A program made the position numbers and the translations under genes. Of a stretch of 64,000 nt of DNA, positions 33,521 through 64,000 are shown one piece after another (positions within the stretch are counted from its first letter, which is position 1; each line of letters opens with the position of its first letter). The stretch covers positions 1,632,001-1,696,000 of the forward strand of contig CM000151.3 in NCBI GenBank assembly GCA_000004695.1. The letters run 5' to 3'. Source of the stretch: Dictyostelium discoideum (taxonomy: Eukaryota). The notes beneath the pieces are model-generated. The model saw only the letters and a program-made list of their open reading frames with translations. It made no database searches and was not told the DNA's origin.

Positions 33521-36069
33521 TTAAACATTTGCAGAACCACCAATTGGGAAATCTAAATCAAAATTATTGATTTTCATTAATTCATAATATGGTGGTTTAT
33601 AACTATTTGAATTATATTCAGAGATTGAATGAGAAGCATCATGGAATTCTTGATGTACAGTTGGATTTAAACTTGTACTATCATTGATAACTGAACTACC
33701 AGAGGCTTTCATTTCAATATCACCACTATTGGTACCATCAGTTTGTTGTTTTTGATATTGATCCATTATACCACTCTTTGAAATATCCTTGAATTTATAT
33801 TCAGCAAAATACCAAAATACGATAGTAACAACTAAACAGATGACTACCAAAATACCATAGTAGAATTTGTAAACATTGAAAGTACCAATCATAAGGATAT
33901 GATAAATGAGTAAACCAATGATCGTACGTCTGAAATGCATTGGGCTCATGAAACCACCACATTGATAATTAGGAGTATTTACCCAAATGATGTTATACTT
34001 TTGAACGAGATAACTTAAACCGAAATACCAAGCACCAAATATTAAAATAAAAGGTGATAGAGTTGAGTAAGCCAAAGTCAATTGAAGGATTAAAAGATTC
34101 TTTGCATAGTTTACACCATAAGCAAATGGACCTTGATGAAGGGTATCATCGATTTGTCTCTTTGTTTTTGCTAACCATTTCAATTTAATGAGTTGAATAA
34201 TTAAACCAACGATACGTAAAATTGCACCAAATGAACCAGCTGCAGCAATTAAAATATAATTGATCATTTGGAATGATAAACCACCAAGGGAATTTGCGAT
34301 TGAACCAATGATTGAGGTTGGATCATTTGCAATTTGTTCAATTGATTGGAAGATTGTACCAGCGATAGCGGAAACGAGGAAAACATTGAAAACCAAGAAA
34401 AGGAAATATTTTGAGAAAACAGAAGCTTCAATTCTACTATTTGAGAAATAGCCACAAGCACGACTAAGAGCATAGATGATGGGGATCAATAAGATCATGA
34501 AAATGATTAAAATTAAATTTGGTAAGAAACCACTAAGAAAACCTTGTAAAATTTTACTCTTGCTAATGATATCAGTGATCCAAGAGAATGCTTTAACTCT
34601 AGAGATAGTTTCCAAATTACTGAAACCACTTAAAAATGCCACTGGAATACCCCAAAGGAAGACGAGAGCAAATGTTAAAATTGCAACAATAAGTGAACGG
34701 ACATAGTATGATTTCAATCCAATATGGATATTCTTCCAGAATACGTCGTTTGGATCTGGTGCATAATAACGAGAGAACAATACATGATACTTTGCGTGCA
34801 TAATAGTTTGAACCATCTCTTTTTGAACCTTTCTTTGATTGAAAATCACAAAACTTGAACCACCAACATTTGAATTGGCATTTTTAATATAGTAACCAGT
34901 TTCAGCCTCGGCTCTCTCGTATTCAATCTTTTTGGTTAATTCATCGATCTTCTCTTGAAAGTAGTCGATACTATCTTTCTCTTCTCCAAAACAACCTAAA
35001 AATCCTATTTTTGTAGTTGGTTTCTCTTTGGTTCTTCTATAGCTCTCTATGGCACTTTCATATTTCTTTACAAAGTTCTCTCTTTCGGAAACCAATGCAT
35101 AGATATGAGGTGCAGGATATTGTAATGATACATCCAAAAGATCTGATGGATTTGAGAGATGACTCTTAAAGTAATTTGATAATTCCTCACGAGTGAACAT
35201 ACTATTTGGAATATCTCTTAACATGATTGTATAATTTGAAAGACGACTTTGTTGTTTATATTGAATTCTCTCCTTTGAATAAAGATGATAATCTTGATAA
35301 CTAAACCATAAAACCACAATGGTAACAAAGAAAACAAATACCAAATGTACCCATAACAAATGAGATCCTCTTTCAATATTACCCATTGATATCATTGTTA
35401 ACCCGACAACCTCATCTGGTAATTTACCATCTTCATCCTTTTCTCTATGTTCATTATATTTACCATAATAATTGGTTGGATATAACATAACTGATGATAT
35501 TACCATTAATACAACACAAATATAAAAACTTGTTTTAACATTTCTTAAATACATAAATCCATCCTATTATTATTTTATTATTTATTTTTAAAAAAAAAAA
35601 AAAAAAAATATATTAAAAGATAGGGGGGAGAAGATGTGTTAATATTTTTTAATAATTAAAAAAAAAAAAAAAAAAAAAAAAATGAAAATTTGAAAATGAG
35701 AAAAAAAAACTAAAAATAAAATTTGACGCTGGTGATGAAACGGAATCGGAAAAATCCAATTTTTAAAAAATAAAAATAGAATATACATACCAAACCAGCA
35801 GTATCTTTAATACTATTATCACTATATTTAATTGTATCTACAACCCATGAAAAGAATCCATCCGATGGGGGTACTGACACACCTTTGTGGTGTTGTTCAA
35901 ATCTATATTGGTAAAATTGTTTGAATTTTCTTCTTACAATGCAAAATATTAAAAAGAAAATTAACATCACCACACAATTGATAACTAATGTTACAACAAA
36001 TGCATTATCATTTGCATTGTAACGATTGAGATGTTCACCTGAACCAGATCCAGAACTTGAATCTGACAT
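33521..36069 (-). CDS. OSCA/CSC1/TMEM63-family hyperosmolality-gated, calcium-permeable cation channel (RSN1_TM + DUF221/RSN1_7TM domains). Model: join(36069..35791,35563..33521), about 773 aa
   Basis: Exon 1 is ...NAFVVTLVINCVVMLIFFLIFCIVRRKFKQFYQYRFEQHH...SGFFSWVVDTIKYSDNSIKDTAGL (RSN1_TM N-terminal domain) with a GTATGT donor. Exon 2 begins DGFMYLRNVK..., giving the conserved GLD motif across the junction, and the acceptor is AATAG. The family signature RYYAPDPNDVFWKNIHIG and multiple TM helices are present. It is a paralogue of the partial gene at 61684+. Confidence 0.8.
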
Positions 36070-36469
36070 TTTTTTTTTTATTTTTTTTTAATTTATATTA
36101 TTATTTAAAAATTTTTCTTTTTTCTTTTTTCTTTTTTCTTTTTTTTCTTTCTTTCTATATATTATTATTAAACTATGGGTTATTATTATTTTATTATTAT
36201 TATAATAAATATTAAAAAAAAAAAAAAAAAAAATTTATTTTATTTTTATTTTTTTATTTTATTTTTTTTTTATTTTTATTTTTATTTTTATTTATTTTTT
36301 TGTTTTTTTTTTTTTTTTTTTGTAGTTTTAGATAAATTTGAAAAAAAAATAATAAAAATAAAAAAAAAATAATTTTTATAACGAAAAAACAATTTTTTTT
36401 TTTTTTTTTTGTTTTTTTTTTTCAAATTAAATTTCTTTTTTTGGTGATCTCATATGAAAATTATTTATC

Positions 36470-61016: not shown

Positions 61017-61683
61017 TTTCGTAAATTGATGTTTATTTGGGAAATGAAAATATTATAAAAAAAAAAAAAAAAAAATCAAAAAAAATCAAAAAATTAAAAA
61101 AAAAAAAAAAAAAAAAAAAGAAATTTTAAATTGACCAATTGCTTAAGATTATTGTTATAAAAAATTTTAGTTCATGTTTTATATATTTAAATTTCAAATT
61201 TAAAGAAAAAAAAAAATATATAAATTTATTTAACCCTTAAAATTAAAAATTCTTATGATTATTATAATTATTATCATGGTTTATTTGGATATTAATTAAT
61301 TGTTTTTATATAGATTTAAAATAAAAAAAAAATATATTTTTTATTTTTTTATTTTTTTTTTTTTTAATCTTTTATTCCTTTTTAAGATAAATTTTTTTTA
61401 TTTGGAAGATATTTTTTTTTTTTTATTTTTTTGAGTTTTTTGTAAAATTTAATTAATTTAATTAATTTTTTTTTTTTTTTTTTTTTTTTTTTTTTTTTTC
61501 CACTAAAACCACATAAATTGACGATTACCAATTTATATAAATTTTATTCATATTATTAAACAATTCTTTACATGTAAAAACAAAAACAATAAACTTTTTT
61601 TTTTTTTTTTTATATAAAACATATTATGATAAAAAAAATAATTAAATAATTAAAAAATAATTAAAAAAAAAAAAAAGAATAGA

Positions 61684-64000
61684 ATGGACCTATTTTTAAA
61701 AAACAATACATTATTTTCAGACTCTACAAGTAATACAACGATTTTTGGTAGTGAAACAACAAATCGTTATGAGCTTCAAGATAATGCTTTAGTTGTCTCA
61801 TTATTAATCAATACAGGTCTTTCTCTTTTAATACTTTTAGCATTTTGTATTTTAAGAAAAAGGTTTAAACTATTTTATCAGTATAGAGCTGAAAAACGTC
61901 AAAATGGTATCATAAGAGCACCTGGTACTGGTTTCATTTCTTGGATAAAAGATACTTATAAATATAACTCTGAAAATATTATTGAAATTTCTGGTTTAGT
62001 AAGTAAAAATAAATACATACACACATATGTCGACCCAAGCCCGATCACTAACTATTATTATTATTATTATTATTATTATTATTATTATTATTATTATTAT
62101 TATTATTATTATTATTATTATTATTATTATTTATTATTTATAGGATAGTTATTTTTATTTAAGAAATGTAAAAACAAATTTTAAAATATTATTAACATTG
62201 ATGATAATTGGATGGGTAATGTTATTTCCAACAAATTCAAAAGGTAGATATAATGAAAATAGAAAAGTTCAACAAGATGGTACATTACCAGATCAAGTGA
62301 TTGGATTATCAACATTGTCAATGGGTAATATTGAAAGAGGTTCAAATTTATTATGGGTTCATTTTCTATTTGTATTTATCGTTACTTTGGTTGTAATGAT
62401 ATTTACATTTATTGATTATAAAGATTATGCTGATAAGAGAATTCAATATAGAAAATCAAAAAGATTATTGAACTATACAATTCTCTTAAGAGATATACCT
62501 GTAAATTTATTTTCAAAACAATGTTTAAAAGAATATTTTCAACAATTTTTAATTAATAATAATAATAATAATAATAATAATAATAATAATAATAATAATA
62601 ATAATAATAATAATTTAAATTCATCTTCACCATCTTCATCATCATCTTTGTCAGCTTCTTCTTCATCTTCTTCAAAATCAATGTTAAATAATTCAATAAT
62701 TGATATATCATTACAATATCCAATACCAAATATACATTCATTAATTGATGAAAGGGAGTATTATGTAAAGAGATATGATTCGGTGGTGGCAGAGTATAAT
62801 AAGAGTAGAGTTAGACCAAGTAGGAAATCTGGTTTGTTTGGATTGTATGGTAAAAGGATTGATTCTATAGATTATTATAATGGTAAAATTAATGATATTG
62901 AAGTTGATATTCAAGATACTAAGACAAAGGCAGAGAGAGATTATCAAGATTTGATGAATAAGGAGAAATTACGTCAAGAATCTGGTGATGATGATGATCA
63001 TTCAATTAATATTTCATCAGAAGTTATAAATAGTTTGAAATCTGCTGGTAATGGTTTTATAATTTTTAAAGAGAGGAATAGTCAGAAGGAATTGGTTCAA
63101 ACTATAATTGAAAAACGTGATAATATTTTATTGAAGCGTTATTATGCACCTGATCCGAATGATGTATATTGGCCAAATATTCATATTGGTGGTAAACAAT
63201 TGTATATTAGAGGGTTGATAATCATGGTTTTGACATTTTTGTTGATTTTCTTTTATACCATTCCAATTACGTTCATCTCTGGGTTTAGTAATCTTGGCAC
63301 GTTGGCAAAGATTAAAGCGTTTTCTTGGCTGTTTACATTGATTAATAAGTCACCAACGTTGACTAGTTTCCTCACTGGTTTTCTTCCAGGTTTGGCATTG
63401 ATGATATTCTTGGCGTTGCTAGTACCGATATTGACAATGTTTTCAAGGTTCAGCGGATACTATTCGAAAAGTGCCATTGAGGCATCGATATTTTCAAAGT
63501 ATTTCCTTTTCTTGGTTTTCAATGTTTTCTTGGTTTCTGCTATTGCCGGCACGATATTTCAATCAATTAGTGCAATCATTGATAATCCACCATCGATTAC
63601 TACCACATTGGCAAATTCGTTGGGAGGTTTGTCATATGCTATGATCAATTATGTACTATTGGCTGCAACTAGTTTAACTATGAATCTATTGAGAATTAGT
63701 GATTTATTAGTGGACCAATTCAAATTGAAATTCATTTGTAAAACAAAGAGAGATATCGAAGATACTGAATCGACGGATCCTTTCAAATATGGCCAATTGT
63801 ATGCTTATAATCTATTGGTACTTCAATTATGTTTTGCTTATTCAACATTGTCGCCTTTTATATTGGTTTTTGGTGTTTGGTATTTTGGTGTATCCTATTT
63901 GGTTCACAAGTATAATATCATTTGGGTTAATAAACCTCACATAACTCAATTACTTTATCCAATGTCTTTTAGACGTACAATGATTGCTCTATTAATTTAT
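61684..64000 (+). CDS. OSCA/CSC1/TMEM63-family cation channel, second paralogue, 3'-truncated by the window end. Model: join(61684..61998,62144..>64000)
   Basis: Exon 1 is MDLFLKNNTLF...NALVVSLLINTGLSLLILLAFCILRKRFKLFYQYRAEKRQNG...TGFISWIKDTYKYNSENIIEISGL with a GTAAGT donor. The intron contains (TTA)n and the acceptor is TTTATAG at 62143. Exon 2 begins DSYFYLRNVK... (GLD junction motif). It continues open, with no stop, to position 64000, through RYYAPDPNDVYWPNIHIG and the 7TM region. It is about 60% identical to the minus-strand gene at 33521..36069. Confidence 0.75.
62054..62135. repeat. (TTA)n microsatellite, about 27 units, inside the intron of the second OSCA gene
   Basis: Seen in the sequence. 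Confidence 0.9.

Follow-up and report, generated by a model that had tools for sequence, protein, structure and literature searches.

Opposed OSCA/TMEM63-family paralogues in Dictyostelium discoideum: a probable tandem pair separated by rearrangement

The OSCA/TMEM63 family, which includes rice OSCA1.2 (PDB 6oce), Arabidopsis OSCA1.1, OSCA1.2 and OSCA3.1/ERD4 and human TMEM63A/B, shares a three-domain architecture, and characterised plant and animal members are described as mechanically activated, osmotically responsive cation channels (Murthy et al., 2018, PMC6235560). Two homologues, here termed A and B, are found on opposite strands of a 64,000 nt stretch of the Dictyostelium discoideum genome (GenBank assembly GCA_000004695.1, contig CM000151.3, positions 1,632,001 to 1,696,000), called the window below. 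Their arrangement can be compared with two kinds of described system. In inverted repeats prone to non-allelic homologous recombination and in palindromic segmental duplications, homologous genes in opposite orientation likewise bracket a unique segment; unlike these, A and B lack extended arms and their similarity ends at exon boundaries. The second kind is a generic mode in which tandem duplicates are later split by a paracentric inversion, so that the copies are head-to-tail in one lineage and divergent in another with a block between them. As in such systems, the A/B locus has one conserved flank, formed by A and the isocitrate dehydrogenase gene IDH1. Unlike a plain case, further rearrangements are evident, since at the second junction D. 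purpureum has PET117 beside a Formyl_trans_N gene. On the evidence below, A and B probably originated as a tandem pair and were then separated by rearrangement.

The inverted pair and its gene order in related species

Both genes consist of two exons with the intron placed between GL and D of the protein. The parts of the two genes are as follows.

36069..35791, minus strand: exon 1 of A, 93 codons, ending ...DTAGL; RSN1_TM begins here.
35790..35564, minus strand: intron of A, GT..AG, phase 0, between GL and D; splicing gives an uninterrupted protein that aligns with orthologues.
35563..33521, minus strand: exon 2 of A, 680 codons plus stop, carrying PHM7_cyt and RSN1_7TM.
61684..61998, plus strand: exon 1 of B, 105 codons, ending ...EISGL; the exon boundary is the same in the orthologue P0009.
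61999..62143, plus strand: intron of B, GT..AG, phase 0, between GL and D, containing an (ATT)n microsatellite.
62144..64000, plus strand: exon 2 of B, 619 codons in the window, cut by the window end; about 135 more are expected from the 859 aa orthologue.

Gene A (33521–36069, minus strand) gives a product of 773 aa. Of gene B, 724 aa are visible in the window, and its D. discoideum orthologue P0009 has 859 aa. Pfam matches and gene models bear out a first reading of the letters alone (the earlier note), which had placed two OSCA/CSC1 paralogues on opposite strands at 33521–36069 and at 61684 to beyond 64000, with their 5′ ends facing each other across about 25 kb. Transcription is divergent, from start codons separated by 25,614 bp. 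The protein identity, put at about 60% in that reading, is lower when measured: 352/715 or 49% by BLASTP with gaps counted, and 55% over trimmed alignment columns. The exon structures had been called identical. The phase-0 intron is indeed present at the same place in both genes, but exon 1 of A ends in TAGL and only that of B ends in ISGL.

The two OSCA regions were compared at the DNA level by blastn, and the whole window was compared with itself in six frames by tblastx. The six-frame comparison shows three paralogue pairs, with OSCA A/B inverted and both IDH1/IDH2 and the acyl-CoA synthetase genes ACS1/ACS2 direct. The inverted similarity of A and B is limited to coding exons and consists of blastn segments of 68–75% identity. 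Codon-aligned identity is 62% overall and 47% at third positions, and the longest exact match is 30 nt (34408/63500), within the invariant FSKYFLFLVFNVF... helix. What matches outside the exons is AT-rich simple sequence, and neither comparison shows a mirrored gene pair or mirrored flanking DNA beyond the OSCA exons. A and B are not a palindromic segmental duplication. The pair had also been proposed as a substrate for inversion by ectopic recombination; with 62% coding identity, a longest match of 30 nt and no similarity outside exons it is a poor one, these values being far under the usual requirement of homologous recombination.

In D. purpureum the two orthologues form a direct head-to-tail tandem. 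On scaffold GL871147.1 the A orthologue (47472–50030, plus strand) is followed by the B orthologue (50854–53329, plus strand) after a gap of 824 bp. The IDH1 orthologue, P0036, is found upstream of A on the minus strand (34767–36175) and shows 78% identity to IDH1 and approximately 70% to IDH2. One ComC-like gene lies between IDH1 and A, and the order reads IDH1 <-, ComC-like <-, A ->, B ->. A and IDH1 are divergently transcribed neighbours in the window (36069/38253) as well as in D. purpureum. An inversion that took A along with the genes upstream of it predicts that IDH1, the IDH gene closest to A, is linked to A on the opposite strand in D. purpureum, and this prediction is borne out. Among the arrangements compared, that of D. 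purpureum alone preserves the A-B junction. Several large ComC-like genes (leucine-rich repeat/beta-sandwich/EGF) surround the D. purpureum IDH1 gene (GL871147.1, L011 994–9081 and 18026–21409) and have no counterpart in the 64-kb window.

Closer to D. discoideum the divergent arrangement is found throughout. An independent D. discoideum assembly is collinear with the window from 52 to 64 kb, D. citrinum from 46.5 to 64 kb except that both ACS genes are missing, and D. dimigraforme from 29.5 to 48.8 kb (protease, A, IDH1, IDH2, an 832 aa gene and ARM-BTB). Inversion polymorphism, which the earlier note had suggested looking for, is not seen among the D. discoideum-complex assemblies that overlap the window.

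A head-to-tail OSCA pair, with a gap of about 170 bp, is also present in Tieghemostelium lacteum. The two copies are sister to each other in the tree described below (bootstrap 100), and the pair arose independently of A and B. The second T. lacteum copy (LODT01000029.1, L005 12434–14646) directly follows DLAC_06620 and is publicly called as a 619 aa protein without the first exon. Adding exon 12434–12676 and the GL-D intron yields a full 719 aa protein.

The proposed history is as follows. A head-to-tail tandem duplication would have produced A->B in the stem of Dictyostelium sensu stricto, before the D. discoideum/D. purpureum split, and D. purpureum would retain this original arrangement. 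A rearrangement breakpoint would then have fallen within the short A-B spacer on the branch leading to D. discoideum, D. citrinum and D. dimigraforme. In the minimal version a single inversion of about 28 kb, comprising PET117 ... BTB/BACK ... IDH2, IDH1 and A, would have flipped A and set a pre-existing block between the copies, so that their 5′ ends now face each other while the 5′ end of A still faces IDH1. One inversion reproduces the present order and both orientations exactly. The single-inversion version is put forward as a real possibility that stops just short of being probable. The two spacers in which the junctions of such a rearrangement would lie are listed here.

33149..33520, no strand: putative rearrangement junction, spacer between the A 3′ end and a papain-family protease gene; suggested by the D. 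purpureum A 3′ end abutting the B 5′ end.
61017..61683, no strand: putative rearrangement junction, divergent PET117/B spacer; suggested by D. purpureum PET117 being followed by Formyl_trans_N and B being preceded by A.

A single inversion turns each arrangement into the other, and thus the polarity is a matter of likelihood. We infer that the tandem is ancestral because splitting a tandem pair necessarily breaks between the two genes, because a clean pair made from inverted copies needs two breakpoints at exact gene ends, and because the T. lacteum pair shows the family's way of duplicating. The route, a tandem duplication and then an inversion, is a textbook one. Within 10 kb on either side of the OSCA genes, P. 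violaceum, T. lacteum, H. album and C. fasciculata (the first being Polysphondylium, the last two Heterostelium and Cavenderia) share no flanking genes with each other, with the window or with D. purpureum, and thus outgroup gene order cannot polarise the rearrangement.

The genes between A and B had been pictured as the inner region of an inverted duplication, filled or retained. The BTB/BACK gene, however, already adjoins an IDH1-type gene in P. violaceum, and it is linked to PET117 (annotated PF15786) in D. purpureum. Thus the block is a pre-existing linkage group and not filler. Locus tags suggest that IDH and BTB/BACK genes also share one contig in Acytostelium subglobosum.

Several observations weigh against a tandem origin followed by separation, or against its simplest form. 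The polarity is argued from the likelihood of mechanisms, and the tandem A-B state is found in one independent lineage only, D. purpureum. The common origin of A and B relative to other dictyostelids is moderately supported, in trees that are all distance-based. A single inversion predicts that the protease side of the window below 33.1 kb, where the papain-family protease and a 1720 aa gene occupy 26.7–33.1 kb, was once beside PET117, but PET117 in D. purpureum adjoins Formyl_trans_N, followed by a 167 aa gene and a PA14 gene on an 11-kb scaffold, none of which have window counterparts. Upstream of IDH1, D. purpureum has ABC-transporter, kinase and ComC-like genes and not IDH2 plus the 835 aa gene. 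The gene downstream of B differs as well, being CfaA-like in D. purpureum and DAGK in D. discoideum; a CfaA-like remnant was searched for downstream of B in D. discoideum and none was found. The differing D. purpureum neighbours of PET117, IDH1 and B thus require further rearrangements, or insertions specific to a lineage, on one side of the split or on both.

The same observations bear on a variant in which the origin was tandem but B, or a small segment with B, was relocated and flipped, or in which several rearrangements followed one another. Both flanks of B differ (PET117 and DAGK in D. discoideum, A and the CfaA-like gene in D. purpureum) and A keeps IDH1, as expected if B was the copy that moved. 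The turnover of genes within 10 kb of the OSCA locus between genera, and the finding that only small synteny clusters are common to D. discoideum and D. purpureum (Sucgang et al., 2011, PMC3188802), agree with this. However, a single inversion already accounts exactly for where the block lies and for both orientations, the ComC-like and CfaA-like genes may be lineage-specific insertions, and the D. purpureum scaffold ends 1 kb past the CfaA-like gene. Relocation or a multi-step path is therefore regarded as rather unlikely.

Phylogeny, age and selection

A homologue search with A returns one dictyostelid protein clade at 47–99% identity and the next match is at 32%; plant and yeast members are 24–28% identical to A. 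There are two members in D. purpureum, DICPUDRAFT_88828 (69% to A) and DICPUDRAFT_98592, and one each in P. violaceum, H. album and C. fasciculata. T. lacteum has one member in the search and the second copy adjacent at its locus. In a neighbour-joining tree (699 columns, 500 bootstraps), D. discoideum A groups with DICPUDRAFT_88828 (bootstrap 100), and B of D. discoideum, D. citrinum and D. dimigraforme groups with DICPUDRAFT_98592 (bootstrap 97). The A and B clades are monophyletic relative to the other dictyostelids with a bootstrap of 78; with five distance corrections and two gap filters this support lies between 58 and 98%.

Since each of A and B has its own D. purpureum orthologue, the duplication predates the D. 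discoideum/D. purpureum split; on these sequence relationships it is certainly older than that split, which is placed at approximately 400 million years (Sucgang et al., 2011). It is probably younger than the separation from P. violaceum. The locus puts a date on one case of gene-order turnover in social amoebae, with a duplication before the ~400-million-year split. If the tandem history is correct, the eye-catching bracket of inverted paralogues is the residue of a common tandem duplication and a rearrangement, with little import beyond local annotation.

An older duplication, predating Dictyostelium sensu stricto and followed by loss of the B-type gene in Polysphondylium, Heterostelium, Cavenderia and the ancestor of Tieghemostelium, is considered improbable. 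Between 2 and 28% of bootstrap replicates do place A with the other genera to the exclusion of B, and a fast-evolving B can distort distance trees. Against this, A+B monophyly is the majority result under every correction tried, one gene each is found in P. violaceum, H. album and C. fasciculata, and several independent losses would be required.

The intron shared by A and B had been taken as evidence of the duplication. A phase-0 intron between G(L/M) and D is, however, found in every dictyostelid orthologue examined: both D. purpureum genes, both T. lacteum genes, P. violaceum, H. album, C. fasciculata, D. citrinum B and the second D. discoideum assembly. Thus the intron is ancestral and says nothing on the timing or mode of A/B copying.

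The origin proposed in the earlier note was an inverted duplication. In this reading the copy was made in inverted orientation about 25 kb away, or the spacer was filled later, so that the D. discoideum order is ancestral and the D. purpureum tandem secondary. The divergent arrangement is present in three D. discoideum-complex species, and a single inversion is formally reversible so that D. purpureum could be the derived state. But the inverted state is not common to all two-copy lineages, and a head-to-tail pair 824 bp apart would need two breakpoints exactly at the A 3′ end and the B 5′ end. The conserved A-IDH1 linkage, the lack of any mirrored flank or neighbour gene in the window self-comparison, the direct tandem that the family formed independently in T. 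lacteum, and the older linkage of the intervening genes all speak against it as well. An inverted origin is thus very unlikely.

That A and B belong to two unrelated, pre-dictyostelid OSCA subfamilies and lie near each other by chance, the case that the earlier note had named as fatal to its interpretation, can be dismissed: all dictyostelid OSCA sequences form one clade relative to the nearest non-dictyostelid match, which is 32% identical (bootstrap 100), and the A and B orthologues are adjacent in D. purpureum. The paralogy is ancient, as had been allowed for, within one dictyostelid-specific OSCA clade. By our own estimate, the probability for two given genes to lie no more than about 28 kb apart is ~0.002 when the genome measures about 34 Mb, and chance proximity of A and B is thus unlikely.

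Both genes are under purifying selection. The dN/dS ratio is 0.07 for A against D. dimigraforme and 0.09–0.17 for B (0.09 against D. citrinum); dS between A and B is 1.35 and is saturated. B is 4–8 identity points farther than A from every outgroup, and by these comparisons it appears as the faster-evolving copy, with low-complexity inserts gained. Conserved and maintained by selection, A and B are a pair of OSCA/TMEM63 homologues in an amoeba that is tractable for the study of mechano- and osmosensing. It is conceivable, though doubtful, that tandem OSCA duplication at least twice independently in dictyostelids (the Dictyostelium sensu stricto stem and Tieghemostelium) reflects repeated selection for a second specialised mechano-/osmosensitive channel, and that the inversion rewired the regulation of B and was not neutral. 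If this were true, B in the D. discoideum lineage would have gained a new upstream region shared with PET117.

The B sequence in the window (61684–64000), compared with GCA_054859355.1, an assembly labelled D. discoideum (L003 10001–12700), shows a dS of 0.14 and 95.6% aa identity. This dS seems high within one species. Proteins labelled 'Dictyostelium cf. discoideum' are closer to the window for IDH1 (98–99%). The window and GCA_054859355.1 may represent distinct lineages within a D. discoideum complex.

Family assignment of A and B

A and B are members of a known family and are already annotated. Both show RSN1_TM, PHM7_cyt and RSN1_7TM in that order, with Pfam scores of 149/119/261 bits for A and 140/80/238 bits for B, against gathering cut-offs of 27–29 bits for these domains. 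Protein A aligns with the solved OSCA1.2, OSCA1.1 and OSCA3.1 structures nearly end to end (E-values 1e-74 to 1e-59). Residues 72–682 match 6oce (OSCA1.2, E = 1e-74), and residues 23–685 match 5z1f/8xry (OSCA3.1/ERD4, E ~1e-72 to 1e-70). By homology, A and B are thereby predicted to encode OSCA/TMEM63-family (CSC1/DUF221) membrane channels, with the architecture of the plant and human members. Identity to plant, fungal and other non-dictyostelid members is only 24–32%. The literature searched yielded no functional data on a dictyostelid member.

B differs from the OSCA/TMEM63 comparators by long poly-Asn/Ser inserts in its cytosolic domain. Situated within PHM7_cyt are a long poly-Asn/Ser tract and an acidic insert (window 62553–62690 and 62950–63030), which do not have the same lengths in the ACTFIW D. 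discoideum assembly as in the window. Full-length B orthologues have 847–859 aa and are approximately 75–85 residues longer than A. Most of the B intron is made up of the (ATT)n microsatellite, at 62050–62135. Exon 2 of A is 99% identical to D. discoideum ACTFIW_011569. Proteins of the window in general show 95–99% identity to D. discoideum proteins in public assemblies, and the window is very AT-rich, with 13–30% GC per 2 kb.

The block between A and B

The block between the two OSCA genes contains the following genes.

38253..39350, plus strand: IDH1 (NADP isocitrate dehydrogenase), main exon; Pfam Iso_dh; divergent neighbour of A.
40518..41699, plus strand: IDH2; Pfam Iso_dh; direct tandem paralogue of IDH1 with about 70% aa identity.
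41975..44482, minus strand: gene for an 835 aa low-complexity protein; the D. dimigraforme counterpart has 832 aa.
46523..48345, plus strand: gene for a protein with ARM and BTB domains (Pfam); one 628 aa gene in D. dimigraforme.
48676..50415, plus strand: SPT2-like gene with two exons (Pfam); the collinear D. citrinum stretch holds one called gene of 512 aa.
50586..52765, minus strand: acyl-CoA synthetase 1 (ACS1), ACAS_N/AMP-binding.
52996..55081, minus strand: acyl-CoA synthetase 2 (ACS2), direct tandem copy of ACS1 with about 91% aa identity.
58375..60183, plus strand: BTB/BACK protein gene (Pfam).
60695..61016, minus strand: PET117 homologue with two exons; the spliced product matches Pfam PET117 at E = 1e-13.

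A block of ten genes had been described. The two isocitrate dehydrogenases, the ARM-BTB, SPT2-like, acyl-CoA synthetase, BTB/BACK and PET117 assignments are confirmed by Pfam, but the number of solid genes in the block is nine; a tenth, of 184 aa between A and IDH1, is called only in D. dimigraforme. The label of putative transcription factor given to the 835 aa protein finds no domain support. This protein has no Pfam family match, either whole or in its non-repetitive C-terminal 305 aa. Only the IDH1 orthologue is present near the OSCA pair in D. purpureum (window 38253–41699; L010 10001–14419; L011 10001–11409).

No tRNA genes, which could mark breakpoints or retroelements, are present in the window. 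Other long inverted repeats between 30 and 64 kb were considered and rejected, being (ATT)n microsatellites facing (AAT)n microsatellites with no structured element. They are located at 44510–44600, just upstream of the start of the 835 aa gene, and at 60295–60405, just downstream of the BTB/BACK stop, and they explain the top inverted-repeat matches of the repeat finder.

ACS1 and ACS2 are a recent direct tandem pair. D. citrinum lacks both at the site between its SPT2-like and BTB/BACK genes, which is collinear in other respects (cf. L008 3873–6844). This suggests a lineage-specific gain or a loss in D. citrinum. The ACS genes are approximately 80–92% identical to copies in another assembly labelled D. 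discoideum, and the adjacent BTB/BACK gene shows 92–100% identity in tblastx pieces.

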